NCBI GenBank assembly: GCA_022565615.1
Contig: JAIUMM010000003.1
Location: forward strand, 1,012-65,011
DNA from: Nanobdellota archaeon
Lineage (GTDB): Archaea; Nanobdellota; Nanobdellia; Woesearchaeales; UBA583
Length of the DNA: 64,000 nt
Reading direction: 5' to 3'
Shown: positions 1,450-59,001 of the stretch, in pieces
Layout: the number at the start of each line of letters is the position of its first letter
Numbering within the stretch: position 1 is the stretch's first letter
Program-made: the position numbers and the translations under genes
The notes under the pieces: model-generated
Databases searched by the model: none
Told to the model about the DNA's origin: nothing
Seen by the model: only the letters and a program-made list of their open reading frames with translations

Positions 1450-3489
1450 ATGAATACTAAATTACAATCGATTCACAATTTATTTTATCCAAGTTCAATT
1501 GCAATTGTTGGAGCAAGTAATGATACTTCAAAAATAGGAGGATTTATGTTTGAACAAATAAAAGACCACCCCTCAATTACTGCATATGCAGTAAATTCAA
1601 AAGGAGAAGAAATTCAATCTAGAGAGTCATACAAATCAATTATTGAAATTGAAGACGATGTTGAAGTAGCAATTATCGTAATCCCTAAGCAATTTGTATT
1701 AAATATATTACACGAATGTGCTCTTAAAAAAATTTCAAAAGTCGTAATCATTTCAGCAGGATTTAAAGAAGTAGGGGAAGAAGGTAAAAAACTAGAACAA
1801 GAAATTACTACATTTTGTAAAAACAATAATATTACATTAATAGGACCCAATTGTCTTGGATTTTTAAACGCTGAATTAAAACTTAATGCATCATTTGCAA
1901 AAGATATTCCTCAAAGTGGAGGAGTTGCATTAGTTTCTCAAAGTGGAGCTGTAATTGATGCTATAATTGACTGGTCATTTGCACACAATATTGGATTTTC
2001 TAAAATTATTAGTGTAGGTAATATGGCGGGAGTCACTCAACATGATTTTTTAGAGTATTTAATGCAAGATGATAAAACTAAATCAATTGTATTTTATTTA
2101 GAAAGTTTAGAAGAAGGTAAAAAATTTCAAGAATTATTAAATAAAACTACTCCTCTAAAACCTGTATTTATTCTTCATCCGGGGAAATCTGTAAATGCAC
2201 AAAATGCAATTGGGTCCCATACCGGATCACTAGCTCATAACTATGAATTAATTAAAACAATTTATTCTTATTCAAATACAATACTTGTAGAAGGATTTGA
2301 TGAATTATTTTCACATTTAACTGCTCTTAAAACTAAACTTCCAACTGGAAATAAAATACTTATCATTACAAATGCAGGAGGACCAGGAGTTATTGCAACT
2401 GATTGTCTTGATGATTTTAATTTACATAAATACACTCTTACAAATGAAGAAAGAGAATTATTTAAAGAATTACCACAAGCAGCTTCTCTTGAAAATCCAG
2501 TTGACATACTTGGAGATGCAGACCCCAAACGATACTCTTATGCTCTAAATACTGCCCTTAAAACTCAAGCAGATGGATTTTTAATATTATTAACACCTCA
2601 AATGATGACTAATTCAAAAGCAATTGCACAAGAAATTATTGAACTTGATAAAGAAACTAATAAGCCAATTTATTGCTGTTTTTTGGGTAGTAAAGAAGTT
2701 AAAGATGCTCTATCTTATTTTGATTTAACAAATGTTGCATATTTTTCATCTCCAAGAGCTGCACTTGAATCTTATTCAAAATTACTCACATATAACACTT
2801 CAAAACCTCTTCTTACAAACTCAAAATCATCACCACAAAGAAATATTGAAGTTCAAAAAAAAGGATTATTAAATCAAGAAGAAACTTTAAAAATTTGTAA
2901 ACAGTTAGGTTTAAAAACTCCTAAGACGTATTTACTTAACTCAGTTCATGATATTTACACAACTAATTTTGACCCTCATTGTACATACTTTGTAAAAGCA
3001 GATAATATTTTACATAAAAAAGATGTAGGAGCAGTAAAACCACATATACAACCTGAAGAATTAGTTCCAACATTAGAAGAGATGTTCTCAACATTTTCAA
3101 AAGAAAATCCAGATGTTACTATTATTGTTCAAGAAGAAATTAAAGGAATTGAAGTTATTGCAGGTTTAAAGTGTGATGAGAGTTTAGGTAATTTTTTATT
3201 ATTTGGTTCAGGAGGAACTGCTGTTGATATTTTTAAAGATATAAGTTTTGCACCAACTCCAATAACTACTGAAATTTCTCAAAAAGTAATTAATTCTACA
3301 CTTATTTCTAAATTACTCCATGGATATAGAGGAGATGAGGCAGTAAATATTGAAGATTTACAGCAAGCACTTGAAAAAATATCTTACCTTCCTTCAATGT
3401 ATGAAAATTTAGTAGAAGTTGATTGTAACCCAATTATTGTAAATAAAGAAGGAGCATATTTAGTAGATGTGAAATTATTATTCAAATGA
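1450..3489 (+). CDS. acd: acetate--CoA ligase (ADP-forming), fused alpha/beta subunits
   Basis: 679 aa. N-terminal CoA-binding fold (IAIVGASNDTSKIGG), succinyl-CoA-synthetase-like ligase domain (GPNCLGF, SQSGA) and C-terminal ATP-grasp. This length and architecture are typical of fused archaeal ACD. Confidence 0.85.
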   Translation: MNTKLQSIHNLFYPSSIAIVGASNDTSKIGGFMFEQIKDHPSITAYAVNSKGEEIQSRESYKSIIEIEDDVEVAIIVIPKQFVLNILHECALKKISKVVIISAGFKEVGEEGKKLEQEITTFCKNNNITLIGPNCLGFLNAELKLNASFAKDIPQSGGVALVSQSGAVIDAIIDWSFAHNIGFSKIISVGNMAGVTQHDFLEYLMQDDKTKSIVFYLESLEEGKKFQELLNKTTPLKPVFILHPGKSVNAQNAIGSHTGSLAHNYELIKTIYSYSNTILVEGFDELFSHLTALKTKLPTGNKILIITNAGGPGVIATDCLDDFNLHKYTLTNEERELFKELPQAASLENPVDILGDADPKRYSYALNTALKTQADGFLILLTPQMMTNSKAIAQEIIELDKETNKPIYCCFLGSKEVKDALSYFDLTNVAYFSSPRAALESYSKLLTYNTSKPLLTNSKSSPQRNIEVQKKGLLNQEETLKICKQLGLKTPKTYLLNSVHDIYTTNFDPHCTYFVKADNILHKKDVGAVKPHIQPEELVPTLEEMFSTFSKENPDVTIIVQEEIKGIEVIAGLKCDESLGNFLLFGSGGTAVDIFKDISFAPTPITTEISQKVINSTLISKLLHGYRGDEAVNIEDLQQALEKISYLPSMYENLVEVDCNPIIVNKEGAYLVDVKLLFK

Positions 3490-7163: not shown

Positions 7164-7273
7164 AAAAAAATTTAATCTATATCAAATTACTTCTAAGTTA
7201 TTTTAAAAAAAATTTAACTTTAAAAAAAATGATTTTAGAATTTAAAAAATAATTAGAATAAATAAATTCAATT

Positions 7274-7350
7274 TTACTTCTTCATAAATCTTCGTAGTAA
7301 TGAAAAATCTCCTCATGCAGGAATAACTATTCCTGCTGACCTTTGTATAA
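7274..7350 (-). pseudogene. fossil secY 3' end (echo of the last ~25 codons)
   Basis: The reverse complement of 7274-7312 reads GDFSLLRRFMKK-stop, against the secY C-terminus EDFSLLRRFMKK-stop. Similarity is weaker up to about 7350, with an in-frame TGA (7313-7315) and indels. Confidence 0.65.
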
Positions 7351-7405
7351 GACATTCGTTACAAAGTAACTCAATCTCATTAATTATTAAAAATAAAAAA
7401 TAAAA

Positions 7406-8827
7406 CTATTTTTTCATAAATCTTCTCAATAATGAAAAATCTTCCATACTCTCCCTACTTAATTGCTGATAGAATTGATATACAATCATCACAAGTAATA
7501 AAATTCCAGTTCCCTGAGTAAGAGCTGAGAACATATCTGCAAATGCTGCAAGTAGACCTACTCCAATACCACCCATAATAGTTAATGGGCCAATATATCT
7601 CTCAAGTAGTCTCTCAATAATTCTTACATCTTTTCTAAATCCAGGAATTTGTAACCCTGAACTTACAATTTGTTTTGCTTGAGAATAAGGATCCATTCCT
7701 GCTGTTTGAACCCACAAGTATGCAAAGAGTGTCGAACCACCAATCATAAGAAGAGCATATAATAATGCATGCCAATAAGTCATAAATAATGATAAATCTG
7801 TACTTGGATCTAAAAAATTAACCGGGGTGAACCAAAGAGCCATTCCAGAAATAGGATTTCCTGCAGGATCATGTTGTCCAAAAATATTTGTAGATACAAA
7901 ATTTCTAAATGCACTTGCATCATCAGGATTATTTGGTTCAACTGCTAATGCTAACAATGACACATTTGCTAAAATTGCTGAAATAAAAATAACTGGAATT
8001 ACTCCTGCATAGAAAAAATTTAAAGGCCATTTATAACTTTGACCTCTTACTTTACCAAATGAAAGAGGAATTTGAACATTTACGGCTTGAAAAAATACAA
8101 TGATAAGTAAAAGTGCTATTGTAACAGCAATTGGTAATAATACATCATTTGATAGTTGAAGCCATTGAGTATTAATTATATATATGAAAAATAAAAATAT
8201 TTTTCCAATAGGATTTTCCCCACTACCTGGGAAAAATTCAGCACTTGCTGTAAATGGTGAAAATAATTGAACAAATACTGCTGCTCCAATACCTGCTGCA
8301 ATAAATATACTCACACCTGACCCAAACCCCCATTTTTTTACAATTTCATCTAAATAAAATATAATTAAACCTCCTAAAATCAATTGAAGTACAATCAAAA
8401 AGAAACTATTAGCAATAGTGGGATCTGCCGAGAGCCCTCCCAATTGTACAAATATGAAAGCTTGAAGTATAATAAATACAAAAGTTAAAATCTTGTGAGT
8501 ACCATGATAAATAAACTTTCCATCTTCTGTATTCATATCAAAATTTAAAATTCCAGCTCCTTTAAACAATTGAAGCATAATTGAAGCAGTAACAATTGGA
8601 CCAATTCCTAACGTCATTAACGTTCCAATACTTGCTCCAAAAAGTAATTCTAATCTTTGTAGTTGTTGAGCAACTTCTCCTTGAATTCCATATAAAGGTA
8701 TAGCTGATAAAAATAAGAATAAAAATAGTATACCTAATGTCCATGTTAATCTTGTCTTCAAATCCCTCTTTTTTTCAGGTGATTTCACCTCAGGAATATG
8801 CATAAGTAAATTTCTATAAAAAGACAT
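7406..8827 (-). CDS. secY: preprotein translocase subunit SecY
   Basis: 473 aa with 10 TM segments; archaeal SecY/Sec61-alpha-like N-terminus and C-terminal region (GLQIPGFR...IERLLERYI). TAG stop. Confidence 0.95.
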   Translation of the reverse strand: MSFYRNLLMHIPEVKSPEKKRDLKTRLTWTLGILFLFLFLSAIPLYGIQGEVAQQLQRLELLFGASIGTLMTLGIGPIVTASIMLQLFKGAGILNFDMNTEDGKFIYHGTHKILTFVFIILQAFIFVQLGGLSADPTIANSFFLIVLQLILGGLIIFYLDEIVKKWGFGSGVSIFIAAGIGAAVFVQLFSPFTASAEFFPGSGENPIGKIFLFFIYIINTQWLQLSNDVLLPIAVTIALLLIIVFFQAVNVQIPLSFGKVRGQSYKWPLNFFYAGVIPVIFISAILANVSLLALAVEPNNPDDASAFRNFVSTNIFGQHDPAGNPISGMALWFTPVNFLDPSTDLSLFMTYWHALLYALLMIGGSTLFAYLWVQTAGMDPYSQAKQIVSSGLQIPGFRKDVRIIERLLERYIGPLTIMGGIGVGLLAAFADMFSALTQGTGILLLVMIVYQFYQQLSRESMEDFSLLRRFMKK

Positions 8828-9010: not shown

Positions 9011-10463
<1,453 letters not shown>

Positions 10464-10589: not shown

Positions 10590-11844
10590 TTATTCAACTT
10601 TAGATTTATAAATAAAAAAATTAAATATAATAACAATAAGAATTGAAATTACGACTAAAATTATTGAAATTAAAATTAATGAATATTCTAATGCAAATTT
10701 ATCTATTAAAATACCTGAAACAAATAATAATAATGAAGCAAATATAGCTTGGAAAAAAGAAAATAAAGAATGAATTGAAGCTTGGATTTTTTCATTTGAA
10801 CTTTGAGTCTGAATTTTTTCAGATATAAGTATATATAATAAACTACCAATTGACTACATAACACCCATTACTAAAATAACTATGAGCCAATGCATTAAGA
10901 TTACAGCTATCAAACAACTAAACCAAACTACTACCACCACAATGAATAAATTCTCCTCAAAAAAAGTAATTATCTTTGATGAATTCCAAACAATCAATGA
11001 TTGTATTATAGTTGCTAATGCAAAAATAATTCCATAAATCTCAATCCCAAAACGCTCTTTTATCAAAGGCTGATTAAATAAATCCCCAAAAATAGAAATC
11101 AGTCCTCCAAATATTATTGAGAATAGAAGAATAAAAACCAAATATTTATTTTTAAATAAACATATTATTGGAAATTTAAACATTGAAACTATTTCAAAAT
11201 ATAGCCGAGATAATTTCAAGTTTTTCTTTTTAACTTTTTTAATAATTTTTGAATTTTGTAAATTAAAATCAATATTTAAACTTTCTTTAAGTAAAAAAGT
11301 AATTACTAAACTTGAAACTGCAAACGTAGCACTTACAATATAAGGTACAACATAGTTTATATTGAATAAAAATGGAGCAATTAAATTAGTTACAACACCA
11401 GTTACAACCAAGTAAACTTGAATTTTGGATAAATAAAACGAAAATTGATTTGAATTATCAACATAATTTTAAACTCTCATATAACAATGATTCTTCAGCA
11501 CCTGAACTAAATGAAGATCCTAAAATTAAAAATAAAAAGCCTAATAGAAAAGGAATAAATGAAGTTCCAAATATGAAAAATAACATACAAATTGAATAAC
11601 ATACATACGATAACTTTAAACTTATTACCCTTCCATAAACATCTGCAAATAAACCTGTTGGATATTGAAATATAATAGATGCCAAAACAGGTACTGCTAA
11701 AAGTAATCCAATTTGAGAATAAGAATTAATGAATATTTCTAAAAATAAAATGTTAATTACTGCAAAGAAAAATACAAATCCTTTCAAACCAGCAAGAAGT
11801 TGAATCAATAAAATATTTCTATTGAAATAATAAATATTTATCAT
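10590..11844 (-). pseudogene. MFS-type transporter, disrupted (one frameshift and one in-frame TAG)
   Basis: Three collinear pieces. Piece one is 11844-11458 (PTGLFADVYGRV, MFS loop 2-3-like motif). Piece two is 11411-10854. Piece three follows the TAG at 10854-10856 in the same frame for 87 more hydrophobic codons, to the TAA at 10590-10592. The first junction needs a 1-nt frame change near 11455-11472. The total of about 418 codons is normal MFS size. Confidence 0.55.
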
Positions 11845-11930
11845 TACGTATATTTAAAATAAAATACTTATTAAATTTTGTAATTACAGTATAAAAAATC
11901 ATTATACAAAATATCTCTTCAAAATTTATA

Positions 11931-12120
11931 AATCATAATTTGAGAGAATTTGTTCCTCTGACTACTTTTTACTAAAGTACTCAAAAAATATAACTTTGCC
12001 ATCTGGCAATATCTGTGATTCAAAAATTAAAATATAAATTAATTATAATTTTAAACTATTTCTTCCCTCAACTACTTTTTACTAAAGTACTCAAAAAATA
12101 TAGCTTTGCTATATGAAAAT
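11931..12120 (-). repeat. two tandem ~110-nt units, each ending in a fossil L39e C-terminus
   Basis: A 46-nt block at 11955-12000 is repeated at 12065-12110 (about 41/46 identical). The reverse complements of 12043-12075 and 11933-11965 read VVEGRNSLKL-stop and VVRGTNSLKL-stop. Confidence 0.75.
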
Positions 12121-12291
12121 TTATACTTTTAAACTATTTTTTCTCCAACTTCTCTTCATACTCATCTGAGAAGGATGCACTCTTTTACCTTTTCCAAATT
12201 TTTTAATAATAGCAAACATTGGTGCCCATCTTGTTTGAGACTTAGCACTAATTAGTCTTGCTTTTTTTGCAGGATGTTTATATCTTGTCAT
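12121..12291 (-). CDS. rpl39e: 50S ribosomal protein L39e (eL39)
   Basis: 56-aa ORF below the ORF-track length cut-off: MTRYKHPAKKARLISAKSQTRWAPMFAIIKKFGKGKRVHPSQMSMKRSWRKNSLKV. It has the L39e pattern (K..RLa.a.kq.r..P.....K......hp..R.WRr). Confidence 0.85.
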   Translation of the reverse strand: MTRYKHPAKKARLISAKSQTRWAPMFAIIKKFGKGKRVHPSQMSMKRSWRKNSLKV

Positions 12292-12332
12292 TTTTTCTTT
12301 ATATTAGATTATTTTAGATTATTTTCAAATCC

Positions 12333-12617
12333 CTACTCTTCTCCCTCAACTGCAGGATTATTTCTCTTAGCAATATGCTTTGGAACTAAACTCTCCATTA
12401 CATCTTGACTCTCATACACATATACAATTATATGAATTGTTTGTGACCCATAATGAGATTTAATTTCTTGAATTGAAACTAACTTCTCATCAGCTTTTAA
12501 TTGTTTAACAATTTGAGTTTTCAACTCTTCTCTTGAAGGTGTTGAACTTGATTGTATTTCAAATACATACTCAACTCTATCAAGTAATTTATTTTCAACT
12601 TTACTAACTTCTTTCAT
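12333..12617 (-). CDS. rps24e: 30S ribosomal protein S24e (eS24)
   Basis: ENKLLDRVEYVFEI...TPSREELK...HYGSQ...VYVYES...PKHIAKRN; 94 aa; TAG stop. Confidence 0.9.
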   Translation of the reverse strand: MKEVSKVENKLLDRVEYVFEIQSSSTPSREELKTQIVKQLKADEKLVSIQEIKSHYGSQTIHIIVYVYESQDVMESLVPKHIAKRNNPAVEGEE

Positions 12618-12647
12618 TTTTATTTTATTAATTTTATATTTGAAATT

Positions 12648-13283
12648 TTAAAAATCAACATCTACAAATCTATTTTCAATAGACTTTCTTGCAATTTCCT
12701 TAATTCCAGATTTCGTAATAACTTTTGCAATATACCCTCCTCCAGACATATTATCATTCTTAAAAGATGCTAAAAAACCTCTTTCAACTAATTCTTGAGC
12801 CTCTTTTACACTCATATTTGGTTTATAAAATGTATCCAGAACACCTTTTACATATGCAGAACCTGATCCATCAACCACATATCCATCATGAGGTAATATT
12901 GTTCCATCAGGACTTAAATTAAATAACTGAGCACCTTTTGAGGAATCAAATCCACCTAAAATAACACTCACAATTGAACCCATCTGTCTAAGCATTGAGT
13001 ACTGAGTTGAATTAATAAGCATTGCAGCTTCAATAACATAAGACTCTCGTTCATTTTTAAGTTTTGATAATTTCAACTCACCTTGCATTGCTCTCATTAC
13101 ACGTTGATTATCAGCAGCATGACCTGCTGTTGTTGCAACAATATTTGATGATAACTCATACACTTTAGTTGCTGCATCTGATGCAATAAATCCCGCAGTA
13201 GTTCTTCTATCTGCAGCTAGTATTACTCCATCTTTACATAACAAACCAATACAAGTTGTTCCTGTTTTAACTTTTTCAACCAT
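12648..13283 (-). CDS. psmB: proteasome subunit beta
   Basis: Short propeptide followed by the catalytic Thr context GTTCIGLLCKDGVILAADRRTT; 211 aa. Confidence 0.9.
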   Translation of the reverse strand: MVEKVKTGTTCIGLLCKDGVILAADRRTTAGFIASDAATKVYELSSNIVATTAGHAADNQRVMRAMQGELKLSKLKNERESYVIEAAMLINSTQYSMLRQMGSIVSVILGGFDSSKGAQLFNLSPDGTILPHDGYVVDGSGSAYVKGVLDTFYKPNMSVKEAQELVERGFLASFKNDNMSGGGYIAKVITKSGIKEIARKSIENRFVDVDF

Positions 13284-30517: not shown

Positions 30518-30808
30518 ATGAATAGAGAAGTTACTGACGAAAAATTGAATAAGTATTTTGATGTATCAACAAGAGCATATAATAAAGTGAAAATTGTAGC
30601 TCCAAAAGGAACTCATCTCTACAAAATGGCTGTTGATTTTTTAGAAATGGCTAAAAATTATATTGATGATGCTCATCATTTCAAAGAAAAAGGAGAAATT
30701 GTAACAGCGTTTGCTGCTCTAAATTATGCACATGGGTGGCTTGATGCTGGTGCAAGAGGAGGATTATTTGATGTAGAGCATGATAGTGTATTATTTACAG
30801 TAGATTAA
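30518..30808 (+). CDS. DUF357-like helical protein
   Basis: 96 aa. AFAALNYAHGWLDAGARGGLFDV resembles the conserved core of archaeal DUF357 (from memory). Confidence 0.45.
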   Translation: MNREVTDEKLNKYFDVSTRAYNKVKIVAPKGTHLYKMAVDFLEMAKNYIDDAHHFKEKGEIVTAFAALNYAHGWLDAGARGGLFDVEHDSVLFTVD

Positions 30809-30905
30809 TAATTTATGATAAAAACCAAGAGAAATATCTTGTATGGAGCATTAAAGTGTATTGTTTAGAGTTTTAATATATTAAAATATTTAAAAAAAAT
30901 TCAAA

Positions 30906-41474: not shown

Positions 41475-41960
41475 CTATTTTTTAGATTTTTTAATTTTAC
41501 AAACTTGTAAATTCTTTAATAAATAAAAATTAACTATCAAAAGAATTATTATACTAATTAACTTCAACTCTAAGCCATCATAAGGAAAAAATGAAATCAT
41601 TGTTGCAAGACCTAAATAAGAAGCAATCGTAATTGAACATGCTGGACATCCTGCAACTAATACTCCCAACATTGAACCAAAACTTCCAATACCACTTTGA
41701 GTAACTGAAGAATTTGAAAAATAATACAATTTAAATACACTCAAAACTACAAACAAAGAAAATAATACAGAAATTAATATTTGAAAAGTCCACATTATAT
41801 TATAATAAAATACTCCATAATTAACTTTTATGAGTTCATCTGCAGTTTGAGTTGTAAAAAAATAAATAATTCCAATATTTAATAAAATAAAAAATAGTGT
41901 ATACTTCCAATTAAAAAATACTAATTTGAAGTTTAAAAAAATACTCTTTAAAAAAATCAT
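41475..41960 (-). CDS. small polytopic membrane protein with intramembrane CPAC motif
   Basis: 161 aa, about 4-5 TM. LGVLVAGCPACSITIASYLGLA places a CxxC inside a predicted helix. It lies directly downstream of the DsbA-like gene on the same strand. Confidence 0.45.
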   Translation of the reverse strand: MIFLKSIFLNFKLVFFNWKYTLFFILLNIGIIYFFTTQTADELIKVNYGVFYYNIMWTFQILISVLFSLFVVLSVFKLYYFSNSSVTQSGIGSFGSMLGVLVAGCPACSITIASYLGLATMISFFPYDGLELKLISIIILLIVNFYLLKNLQVCKIKKSKK

Positions 41961-41980
41961 ATTTAATTTGAAGTTTAAAA
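41922..41980 (-). repeat. 42-nt tandem duplication spanning the start codon of the CPAC membrane protein gene
   Basis: The 17-nt perfect repeat TAATTTGAAGTTTAAAA occurs at 41922-41938 and 41964-41980. On the minus strand this reads IFLKVLNFKLN-M-IFLKSIFLNFKLV. Confidence 0.6.
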
Positions 41981-42962: not shown

Positions 42963-43117
42963 GTAGTAATTTATATAAATTATGTAAGCATTTTAAAAGT
43001 AACTATTCACTAATAATAAAAACACTAGAATTATATAACTGTAATAAATTTGTAAAATAAATTTTTTTGTTAAATACAGTTCGAACGAACTTTGGTTAGA
43101 CGATTTATCTTCATTTC

Positions 43118-45944
<2,827 letters not shown>

Positions 45945-46069
45945 GAAATGAATTTTTTATTAGGAAGAAAAAACTTTGTTGTTTTCTTTTATCGTCTAAC
46001 CATCATTAAAAGTCACAAGTGACTTTTTCCGTTCTTCGTAAGTAATGTTAATTACTCACTGCATTAAAG

Positions 46070-46208: not shown

Positions 46209-46353
46209 GATTTTCCCCTAGTGACTTCTTGCTCACATACACATTTAAAAACAAACCTAGATTTTTTTTAAAGTAGAGAAGTAATAAGAACAAATAACTC
46301 CTCAAAATTTTATTTTCCTCTCCCCAACATACTACAATTAACATCATTTAATT

Positions 46354-46428
46354 GATCCTGTGGTCTAGTCTGGATATGATGATAGCCTCCTAAGCTGTAG
46401 ATCGCGAGTTCGAATCTCGCCAGGATCG
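46354..46428 (+). tRNA. tRNA-Arg (anticodon CCT)
   Basis: Acceptor GATCCTG/CAGGATC, the same D arm as tRNA-Arg(TCT), anticodon loop CTCCTAA, T arm GCGAG-TTCGAAT-CTCGC. Confidence 0.85.
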
Positions 46429-46504
46429 TTAGAAAATAAGAGATGAGGACGAAGTTCCTTAGGTGTAAGAACGACTTGAGTGGAACTCAACAAAGTGTCT
46501 CTCA

Positions 46505-46524
46505 CGAATCTCGCCAGGATCGTT
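46505..46524 (+). repeat. perfect 20-nt echo of the tRNA-Arg(CCT) 3' end
   Basis: CGAATCTCGCCAGGATCGTT at 46411-46430 (T loop to 2 nt past the tRNA end) recurs at 46505-46524. Confidence 0.85.
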
Positions 46525-47356: not shown

Positions 47357-47404
47357 AATTACATTATAAATTTAATATTTATAAATATATGGAATCCTCA
47401 AAAC

Positions 47405-47421
47405 TTTAACTTCACAAAAAT
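47405..47421 (-). repeat. 17-nt perfect echo of the aIF2-alpha 3' coding end
   Basis: TTTAACTTCACAAAAAT at 47459-47475 (encodes FCEVK at the C-terminus) recurs at 47405-47421. This is 54 nt (18 codons) downstream, in the same frame. Confidence 0.65.
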
Positions 47422-47452
47422 AATTTTGAATATTAAATAATTTAAATAATAA

Positions 47453-48226
47453 TTAAATTTTAACTTCACAAAAATTAGATTTAGAACTATTCTCAAGTTC
47501 TTGCTTAAAAATTTTATAAATAAAATCAGCACTCTTCATATCCTCATGAGTAATTTTAACTTCAAAATCTCCAGCCCCTAAATAAATAACATTAATTTTA
47601 TCATAATTAGTCTTTTCAACAGCATTTTTAATTACTGATCTCACCCTAATTACACCATCCTCCTTAATAGAAGTTAATTCAAATTTTCTTTTTAATGTCT
47701 CTTCCTCAGGTTTAATTCTATCATTTACTAATTGAAGAAATACTTCCTTCTCCTCTTTACTAAGTTTAGAAAATACTTCAATTTTAGAATTATCAATCAT
47801 AATAGCATATAACATTTCAAACACCAAATCAAATTCCTCAAAAATTTCTTCATATGTTTTCTCAAACAAATCATCTTTAGAAATCTCTAATTTTTGAGCA
47901 ATCTCCTCATACATTCTATCAGCAAAGTCTTCCTTTTTAATTTGCTCTTGTTTTCTCTTTCTAGCTTGTAAATTAACTCTTCTCAAAGAAACATCTATCC
48001 TATTTTGTTTTTCATCAACCCTTAAAATTTTACAAATAATATTTTTCTCCTCAACTACATGATCTCTTAAATTTCTAATCCTACCTGGAGCCACTTCAGA
48101 AATAGTCAAAACTCCCTCTTTTTCATATTCTGGAAGTTTTACAAAAACTGAATTACCATAAATTTTAGAAACCACACACAACACATCTTCATTTACTTCT
48201 GGAAAACCATCTTTAACATATAACAT
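47453..48226 (-). CDS. eif2a: translation initiation factor aIF2 subunit alpha
   Basis: N-terminal S1 domain (PEVNEDVLCVV...GVLTISEVAPGRIRNLRDHV...IDVSLRRV) plus helical and alpha-beta domains; 257 aa. Confidence 0.9.
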   Translation of the reverse strand: MLYVKDGFPEVNEDVLCVVSKIYGNSVFVKLPEYEKEGVLTISEVAPGRIRNLRDHVVEEKNIICKILRVDEKQNRIDVSLRRVNLQARKRKQEQIKKEDFADRMYEEIAQKLEISKDDLFEKTYEEIFEEFDLVFEMLYAIMIDNSKIEVFSKLSKEEKEVFLQLVNDRIKPEEETLKRKFELTSIKEDGVIRVRSVIKNAVEKTNYDKINVIYLGAGDFEVKITHEDMKSADFIYKIFKQELENSSKSNFCEVKI

Positions 48227-58753: not shown

Positions 58754-58825
58754 GCGTCTATAGCTCAGGGGTAGAGCGGCTGCCTTGTAAGCAGCAGGCC
58801 GTGGGTTCAAATCCCACTAGGCGCT
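58754..58825 (+). tRNA. tRNA-Thr (anticodon TGT)
   Basis: Acceptor GCGTCTA/TAGGCGC, D arm AGCTCAGGGGTAGAGC, anticodon loop CTTGTAA, T arm GTGGG-TTCAAAT-CCCAC. Confidence 0.9.
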
Positions 58826-58912: not shown

Positions 58913-58936
58913 TTCAAATCCCACTGGGCGCTTATT
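58913..58936 (+). repeat. 24-nt echo (1 mismatch) of the tRNA-Thr 3' end
   Basis: TTCAAATCCCACTAGGCGCTTATT at 58806-58829 is matched by TTCAAATCCCACTGGGCGCTTATT at 58913-58936. Confidence 0.8.
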
Positions 58937-59001
58937 TTAATTTTTTATATATCTTAGTAAAATAAAAAAATTTATATTCTTATAAACCTTATAGTAATAT
59001 A

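Follow-up and report, generated by a model that had tools for sequence, protein, structure and literature searches.

Directly downstream of rpl39e, the gene for ribosomal protein L39e, a three-unit head-to-tail repeat was identified in a 64,000-nucleotide (nt) stretch from a Nanobdellota archaeon (GenBank assembly GCA_022565615.1, contig JAIUMM010000003.1, positions 1,012 to 65,011 of the forward strand), referred to hereafter as the window. Each unit consisted of the last ~43-50 nt of the gene and a terminator-like flank, and the second and third units carried decayed copies (echo 1 and echo 2) of the gene end. The array probably began with a tandem duplication across the stop codon and then underwent expansion, decay and a recent homogenisation of a 38-nt core. 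Relatives with a 96%-identical L39e were available from other samples and assemblers, namely the Logan contigs of SRR324568xx (L004-L009 and L019-L022) and ENA ERZ27301260 (L008), and the closest named relative was the Candidatus Woesearchaeota metagenome-assembled genome (MAG) L003, whose proteasome beta protein was 93% identical.

Structure of the array

Unit boundaries were set by cutting at a recurrent GAGTA, and unit starts read GA(G/C)TA in all units of the window, L019 and L008. Unit 1 (U1) comprised the real gene end, and units 2 and 3 (U2 and U3) the pseudo gene ends of echo 1 and echo 2, respectively (Table 1). In the same three lineages the units that had kept their 3' flank closed in a GCAA(A/C)GC(T/A)ATATTTTTT-like sequence, which read GCAAAG(C/T)TATATTTTTT in U1 and U2, and only the GATTTTTT run was retained in U3 of the window. 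The stop of the gene (12123-12121) was followed after 78 nt by the TAA of echo 1 (12045-12043) and after a further 110 nt by the TGA of echo 2 (11935-11933), and the coordinates, minus-strand reads, stops and spacings given in the initial annotation of this locus were all borne out. Only 55 and 86 nt of DNA lay between successive echoes, with no integrase, open reading frame (ORF) or foreign DNA between the copies, where no ORF of at least 25 amino acids (aa) had coding character. A reading of the echoes themselves as small ORFs or peptides was dropped, the frames being closed by stops.

Echo 1 agreed with the last 23 nt of the gene at 21 of 23 positions, a score reached by 0 of 3000 shuffles (shuffle maximum 19), and in a gapped alignment it spanned the last 43 nt of the gene (p<0.001). 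The earlier proposal that both echoes descend from the 3' end of L39e is thus supported. Echo 2 agreed with echo 1 at 17/23 positions, in register with a direct repeat (11921-12010 and 12031-12120) that was 79% identical over 90 nt. The exact 32-nt core of this repeat (38/39 with one mismatch) occurred twice in the 64 kb against 0 expected occurrences and was the longest short-range repeat in the window. A 46-nt spacer block ahead of the echoes was repeated as described, at 40/46 rather than 41/46 identical positions. The hairpin reported within this spacer was also present, and part of the spacer belongs to the echo, as the 3' arm of the U2 hairpin (AAAAGTAGT) was homologous to rpl39e codons AAG AGA AGT and only its 5' arm lay within a 6-nt insertion missing from the gene. 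In L019 the 8-nt core arms of the hairpin, CTACTTTT and AAAAGTAG, were perfectly complementary.

The 6-nt insertion, CTTT(A/T)(G/C), and the change AAGAGAAGT>AAAAGTAGT were found in all pseudo-units of the three lineages, and the gene had neither. A 1-nt indel placed the pseudo-units out of the gene's frame upstream of the last eight codons, and the residues VVEG and VVRG, which the initial annotation translated from the echoes, are therefore not L39e peptide. Since the pseudo-units shared the insertion and substitutions and had homologous flanks, the echoes are best read as units of the array and not as independent gene ends.

The flanks closed in runs of T6-7, with a short stem ahead of the run in U1 and U2 (folds and terminator scan), and a stem with T6-7 equivalent to that of terminator-like element 1 was also present in L019 and L008. 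A stem-loop with at least five T directly past the last gene, the pattern of an intrinsic or oligo-T terminator, was thus found by sequence. Searches of positions 11400-12700 with the Rfam 15 covariance models returned nothing relevant at E <=10, with no family at the locus at gathering or permissive thresholds.

Proposed origin of the array

The array displayed the register, flank homology, shared derived changes and copy-number variation of a tandem segmental duplication. In an ancestor of the Woesearchaeota clade, a segment running from ~45 nt inside rpl39e through the stop to the end of the terminator (stem-loop and oligo-T) would have been duplicated in tandem. Such a duplication would do no harm, as the ORF is still completed by the first copy and the second is left as a promoter-less, headless pseudo-end. 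Slippage or unequal crossing-over involving these units would later have added a third one. As the pseudo-units decayed, they would have acquired the 6-nt insertion that makes the hairpin, a frameshift of 1 nt and flank indels. In the window lineage the 38-nt core of U2 and U3 may then have been homogenised lately by gene conversion or re-duplication. Judging from their sequence, the T-runs that close the three units (12093-12098, 11983-11988 and 11893-11898) probably still end transcripts of the ribosomal protein cluster ahead of the neighbouring MFS transporter gene. Neither an ORF nor an Rfam family nor a dispersed copy plays a part in this origin, and plain tandem duplications across gene boundaries were also present elsewhere in the window, at the gene at 41475..41960, at tRNA-Thr and, with a period of 54 nt, at aIF2-alpha.

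The array in related lineages

The U1-U2 structure was present in the window and in the relatives with a 96%-identical L39e (L004-L009, L019-L022 and L008), which also had a hairpin with perfectly complementary 8-nt core arms and a more degenerate continuation. An orthologue of the window's U2 was identified in L019-L022 and in L008. Copy number varied: L003 had no extra unit, L019 and L008 had at least one extra unit and a degenerate second one, and the window had two. In L003, which had no array, the gene end was directly followed by the flank that stands after echo 1 in the window, and echo 1 with its flank matched the L003 gene end with its flank. Distances for S24e, L39e and MFS placed the window as the outgroup to L003, L004/L019 and L008. 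With U1-U2 shared by the window, L019 and L008 and the window as outgroup, the array must be older than the clade. The single-copy state of L003, nested among array-bearing lineages, is a later loss by deletion between direct repeats. The unit-2 flank of L008 and the unit-1 flank of the window were 85% identical over 33 nt. At the 5' end of rpl39e, L003 carried two 100% identical 94-nt units, a direct view of array dynamics in this clade. In a test of rpl39e as a general hot spot, significant 3' or 5' echoes were confined to this clade among ~30 further L39e loci, and the more distant L39e loci had no significant 3' echo.

The core of echo 1 was identical to the L008 gene end (23/23, against 21/23 for the resident gene end). 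An L39e allele spelled AAT TCT CTC AAA TTA TGA, as in echo 2, was absent among 20 relatives. In L019 (5720-5750, and likewise in L004 at 3259-3281) an extra 22-nt mini-echo, AACAGTTTAAAATTATAA-CTT-AACTAGTTTAAATTTATAA, was located right after echo 1, which shows that small duplications are ongoing at this spot.

A loop collapsed, expanded or mis-joined from strain variants during assembly is a hardly credible source of the array. The exact 32-38-nt core did break the Logan assembly at k=31: Logan contigs of SRR13748698 were identical to the window, with L001 ending within the repeat core and L062, an independent Logan contig, starting within the core and continuing through echo 2 into the MFS gene. 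However, the gene-core and core-echo 2-MFS junctions were both recovered in independent Logan contigs, ENA (MEGAHIT) contigs and Logan contigs from other samples held orthologues of the core-echo 1 junction, and the 110-nt period was shorter than the read length. All junction types were therefore supported, with the number of loop traversals taken from the window assembly alone. Independently assembled contigs of two related lineages shared U1-U2, which a third lineage had lost, and on these grounds the array is of old date and no artefact.

Codon pattern of echo 2 and alternative origins

Echo 1 and echo 2 differed by five nucleotides within the six codons of N-S-L-K-L-stop, and 5/5 of these differences were synonymous or stop-preserving, echo 2 having AGT>TCT, TTA>CTC and TAA>TGA. 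The codon-level permutation that the initial annotation had named as a possible refutation did not return a pattern within chance; the synonymous-only pattern was nominally beyond it (P=0.004 with the same positions and 3e-5 with random positions) for a case picked post hoc, with three changed codons, in a unit that already bears pseudo-unit indels. Synonymous-only changes are unlikely under neutral decay, and this weighs against a decaying tandem duplication, as do several other observations. The U3 flank had weak homology to the other unit flanks (p=0.5). The first 107 aligned nt past the stop were 85% identical between the window and L019, compared with 67% identity at four-fold degenerate sites (465 sites). 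The same synonymous signature was found independently in an echo of the SecY gene end (P=0.001), which is not a simple tandem repeat.

The SecY fossil read GGA GAT TTT TCA TTA CTA CGA AGA TTT ATG AAG AAG TAA and the gene end GAA GAT TTT TCA TTA TTG AGA AGA TTT ATG AAA AAA TAG. Six of the seven differences were synonymous or stop-preserving (P about 0.001), and when polarised on L019 the five changes in the echo were all AT>GC, in a genome of 27% guanine plus cytosine (GC).

The respelling of echo 2 would be accounted for if, as a concrete form of the replacement suggested initially, DNA of a diverged relative, or a small integrating element, had recombined homologously inside rpl39e with an illegitimate join just upstream of the resident stop, bringing in a new gene end with its terminator and leaving the old one in place. 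Two rounds would be needed, echo 2 being the oldest once-functional end, echo 1 the intermediate and the current end the newest. Such replacement of gene ends fits the respelling of echo 2 above chance, the SecY echo with its AT>GC changes and its position in a remodelled region without an insert copy after it, and the echoes of tRNA-Arg and tRNA-Thr, which run from the T-loop to the 3' end as integrase attachment (att) blocks do. More distant L39e genes do use serine TCN, leucine CTN and a TGA stop at the matching positions. We nonetheless regard it as unlikely, as the inserts of merely 55-86 nt are without ORF or integrase, the pseudo-units share derived indels that are also present in L008 without evident recent homogenisation, the echo 2-like allele was missing from the 20 relatives, and identical B|A junctions in both events would amount to special pleading. 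The unit-3 position of L019 read AAT TGA ATT ATT TAA TGA, which has in-frame stops and is not peptide-preserving, in a stretch whose homology to unit 3 was not significant (p=0.5); an A>T change and the TGA were in common with the window. No clear boundary of a recombination tract around rpl39e was seen in the sliding identity against L019 and L003.

Independent once-functional gene ends, the reading initially put forward, were thus not supported as the best one in view of the head-to-tail units, the shared insertion and substitutions and the homologous flanks. The array can be explained without serial replacement of the gene or integration, unlikely as these are. The better conservation of the spacer than of the echo had been used as an argument against duplication. 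Within the window, recent homogenisation of the 38-nt U2/U3 core would explain it, the corresponding units of L008 and L019 being far more diverged. A hairpin of echo 2 with the downstream GAAGAGA was tried as the cause of the TCTCTC cluster and rejected, its fold being no better than that of shuffles (z = -0.85).

The excess conservation of U1-U2 could reflect selection for a terminator or promoter role, or else the highly conserved gene end may have converted the units repeatedly. As a selected cis-element, the hairpin and T-run units would act as a multi-terminator, or the TATA-like copies of the gene end (AAATAGTTTAAAATTA) as promoters or small-RNA starts, placed between the ribosomal protein cluster and the MFS gene. 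The 85% identity of U1-U2 between lineages against 67% at four-fold sites, the stem and T6-7 conserved past the stop in three lineages and the similarity of the echo core to the local promoter pattern AAAnnTTTAWAWA all point in this direction. However, L003 lost the array and kept its rpl39e ORF intact, the sequence after the TATA-like motif of the echo was unconserved, there was no Rfam match, and conversion from the conserved gene end could yield equal conservation. Compensatory changes were absent from the array hairpin, which was weaker in the window than in the relatives. A selected element is improbable as the explanation, and it would account for the retention of the array, not for its origin.

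As a tandem duplication, the array is a further case of a decaying duplication of a gene end with its terminator, and it is of little weight beyond being a clean example of how stop-straddling duplications survive in a compact genome. It would illustrate how non-coding repeats may, through gene conversion, come to seem more conserved than a 'coding' remnant. Because contigs break in the 38-nt core, it also calls for caution in annotation and in the assembly of DPANN MAGs.

Other gene-end echoes in the window

A scan of all gene ends in the window identified strong downstream echoes at 6/79 gene 3' ends, namely those of SecY, L39e, a 96-aa gene (30518..30808), tRNA-Arg(CCT), aIF2-alpha and tRNA-Thr, whereas the 5' ends yielded a single strong echo upstream. 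Gene-end echoes thus appear to be unusually many in this genome. Much of the 3' enrichment may arise because stop-straddling duplications are harmless and purifying selection leaves them in a compact genome, an account by which the SecY signature and the G element described below are not explained.

The SecY and tRNA-Arg echoes had an end-insert-end-flank form with a novel insert. A perfect 8-bp hairpin, GCAGGAAT-AGTT-ATTCCTGC, ended 5-6 nt ahead of the SecY fossil (null P 0.004), and no SecY echo was found in the relatives. The echo is located within a remodelled spacer (7164-7405). This spacer is without the CutA1 gene and the 146-aa gene that are found between SecY and V-type ATPase subunit D in L019-L021.

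The tRNA-Thr structure comprised a ~57-nt duplication with a further insertion, the first unit having an extra 43 nt between 8-nt repeats of TATTCTAA. Its fossil was adjoined by a perfect 9-bp hairpin, ATATTTAGT-AAA-ACTAAATAT (null P 0.0014), and the flank of the fossil repeated the portion of the insert that carries the T-run and hairpin (p=0.003). The aIF2-alpha echo, ATTTTTGTGAAGTTAAAGTTT, matched the gene end at 19/20 core positions and could be aligned to 37 nt with small gaps. In the 96-aa gene a 5-bp hairpin ended 4 nt before the echo. The aIF2-alpha and tRNA-Arg structures were reproduced in an independent Logan contig (L063 for tRNA-Arg), and the inserts at the SecY, tRNA-Thr, tRNA-Arg, aIF2-alpha and DUF357-like sites had no homology to the compared sequences.

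A hairpin element at gene termini

The insert at tRNA-Arg(CCT) was located between direct 20-nt copies of the tRNA 3' end, CGAATCTCGCCAGGATCGTT, at 46411-46430 and 46505-46524, and held a ~45-nt imperfect hairpin designated G, GAGACACTTTGTTGA-loop-TCAAGTCGTTCTTACA. Neither G nor the fossil was present at the tRNA-Arg loci of the relatives. The G hairpin recurred at the 5' end of rpl39e in L003 (two copies), in L008 and in the more distant L010-L013, where it was placed between a fossil start and the real start and formed a conserved 8-codon upstream ORF, MTR[YC]E[TI]L[CSD]-stop. This 5' copy is lost in the window and L004/L019. Four pairs of the G stem showed compensatory changes, the target duplication was 20 nt at both sites, and GRCRAGAT stood right before the element at both. 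A covariance model (R1) detected only the five known G copies in 139 kb, no exact pattern matches to G were found in IMG/VR or JGI metagenomes, and no Rfam family was assigned to G at gathering or permissive thresholds. C/D-box, split-tRNA and bulge-helix-bulge intron readings of G and the tRNA fossils were dropped by eye, as the defining boxes or structures were lacking.

Another origin considered for the rpl39e array is the insertion of block B as a small mobile element akin to G, with duplication of its target. With G, a hairpin-bearing sequence of ~75 nt occurs at the termini of two unrelated genes, flanked in both cases by direct copies of 20 nt of the terminus, and the perfect hairpins adjoining the SecY and tRNA-Thr fossils are in keeping with such elements. 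Block B, however, had two copies only in the window, both at this locus, with none in IMG/VR or at other sites of the 139 kb of related loci. Most of block B was also homologous to rpl39e and the gene's flank, its duplication of 43-50 nt contained indels and had no fixed length, and terminal inverted repeats were absent. Insertion of block B is accordingly very improbable.

A broader possibility is that, by a process still undescribed, short stretches of DNA with a hairpin are inserted at gene termini in this lineage, with duplication of ~20-40 nt of the terminus and sometimes with a diverged once-functional end, the rpl39e array being one product. The suggestion is prompted by the 6/79 echoes, the hairpins adjoining fossils, the compensatory changes in G and its presence at two targets, the shared GRCRAGAT and the near-synonymous SecY and L39e echoes, and we hold it to be doubtful. 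If true, the frequent echoes, two of them synonymous-only in their divergence, together with G at two termini would point to a way of recombining or moving DNA in Woesearchaeota that is so far undescribed.

Gene context of the locus

The gene rpl39e was the final gene of an L7Ae-S12-S7-proteasome beta-S24e-L39e cluster on the minus strand, with the MFS transporter gene next. Fifty-four L39e homologues were detected, some of them labelled ribosomal protein L39E by their sources. The MFS gene (10854-11844) was broken into ORFs of 128 aa and 185 aa, both in the window and in L062. In the relatives it was a single ORF of 410 aa, at a DNA identity to the window of only ~67%, and the gene is probably a pseudogene in the window lineage. 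A B recognition element (BRE)/TATA-like sequence, ACAAA(A/G)ATTTAATAA, located 22-27 nt upstream of the MFS start, was the sole intergenic part that aligned as conserved across all relatives and was similar to the upstream regions of other window genes. The window version, ACAAAATTTAATAAG, is probably the MFS promoter, as predicted from sequence.

The GC content of the window was 27%. Its archaeal 16S (9012-10463) and 23S (43107-45955) rRNA genes were unlinked, on the same strand and ~33 kb apart, and the 16S gene had the MFS gene on one side and SecY on the other, as in the relatives. Six tRNAs were counted in the window.

Table 1. Positions of the rpl39e array, its associated sequence features and the other gene-end echoes (window coordinates unless a relative is named)
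Feature	Position	Strand	Description and basis
rpl39e, intact coding sequence	12121..12291	minus	56 aa, C-terminus KRSWRKNSLKV-stop; ORF list, homologues, synteny in relatives
Unit 1 (U1), 71 nt	12163..12093	minus	Real gene end (GAGTATGAAG...GTATAA) and 28-nt flank closing in T-run; unit alignment
Unit 2 (U2), 110 nt	12092..11983	minus	Echo 1 pseudo gene end, stop 12045-12043, and 60-nt flank closing in TATATTTTTT
Unit 3 (U3), 90 nt	11982..11893	minus	Echo 2 pseudo gene end, stop TGA 11935-11933, and 40-nt flank closing in GATTTTTT
Core of echo 1 (GAAGAAATAGTTTAAAATTATAA)	12043..12065	minus	21/23 against resident gene end, 23/23 against L008 gene end
Core of echo 2 (GGA ACA AAT TCT CTC AAA TTA TGA)	11933..11956	minus	Sequence comparison
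Terminator-like element 1	12093..12114	minus	7-bp stem ATATAGC-AAA-GCTATAT then TTTTTT; starts 7 nt past stop; fold
Terminator-like element 2	11983..12009	minus	Stem TTGCC-AGAT-GGCAA then AGTTATATTTTTT; terminator-scan match; fold z = -5.3
Hairpin TACTTT-AGTAA-AAAGTA, start of U2	12073..12089	minus	Fold, alignment
Hairpin TACTTT-AGTAA-AAAGTA, second copy	11963..11979	minus	Repeat, fold
BRE/TATA-like ACAAAATTTAATAAG, predicted MFS promoter	11867..11881	minus	22 nt ahead of ATG at 11844
SecY fossil C-terminus	7272-7310	minus	132 nt past real end; SecY 7406..8827
96-aa gene echo	30846-30878	plus	Last ~33 nt, decayed, 70 nt downstream; gene 30518..30808
Sole strong 5'-end echo	41922-41980	minus	17-nt exact repeat TTTTAAACTTCAAATTA, 42-nt period over start codon; gene 41475..41960
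G element at tRNA-Arg(CCT)	46431-46524; tRNA 46353-46429	hairpin read on minus	Exact 20-nt copy of tRNA 3' end flanks 74-nt insert
aIF2-alpha echo	47399-47452	minus	Plain 54-nt tandem duplication over stop; gene 47453..48226
tRNA-Thr(TGT) echo	58913-58940; tRNA 58754-58825		3' end from T-loop and 8 nt of flank, 107 nt downstream, 26/28
G at rpl39e 5' end	L003 4982-5200; L008 347-465; L010 852-945		Fossil start AAAATGACAAGAT[AG][TC]

Comparison with known systems

No report of short gene-end echoes in DPANN archaea was found in a literature search. A miniature inverted-repeat transposable element or insertion sequence with target-site duplication was rejected on the features of block B given above. 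A diversity-generating retroelement was likewise rejected, as the mismatches were not confined to adenines and included T/C, G/C and A/T in both directions.

Gene-end duplications at att sites are formed by prophage e14 or phage 21 in icd and by archaeal elements in the 3' halves of tRNA genes. Fragments of tRNA genes left behind by integrated elements have also been described (PMC9897764, PMC3293823). The array resembles an integrase att duplication in the direct repeat of a 3' end, the fossil with its native flank and the synonymous difference of the functional end. It differs in having no integrated element or integrase, only 55-86 nt between copies, and intervening DNA that is homologous to the gene end and flank.

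Homology-facilitated illegitimate recombination with uptake of diverged DNA is described in Acinetobacter and Streptococcus, and is not known to occur in the DPANN archaea. A donor end and flank would remain beside the old end, and the synonymous divergence would be explained, but this route predicts that the fossils share no derived indels and have no regular head-to-tail register.

The likeness of the flanks to intrinsic or archaeal oligo-T terminators lies in the T6-7 closing the array flanks, the stem in units 1 and 2 and the position after the last gene of the ribosomal protein cluster. The array stems differ in being AT-rich and weak, and their role would be that of a terminator as read from sequence. 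Compared with a partial tandem gene duplication over a stop codon, the array is distinguished by its above-neutral conservation across lineages, the hairpin at each unit start and the all-synonymous codon changes of echo 2, and it agrees with such a duplication in its head-to-tail units, flank homology, copy-number change, distal decay and concerted evolution of the core.

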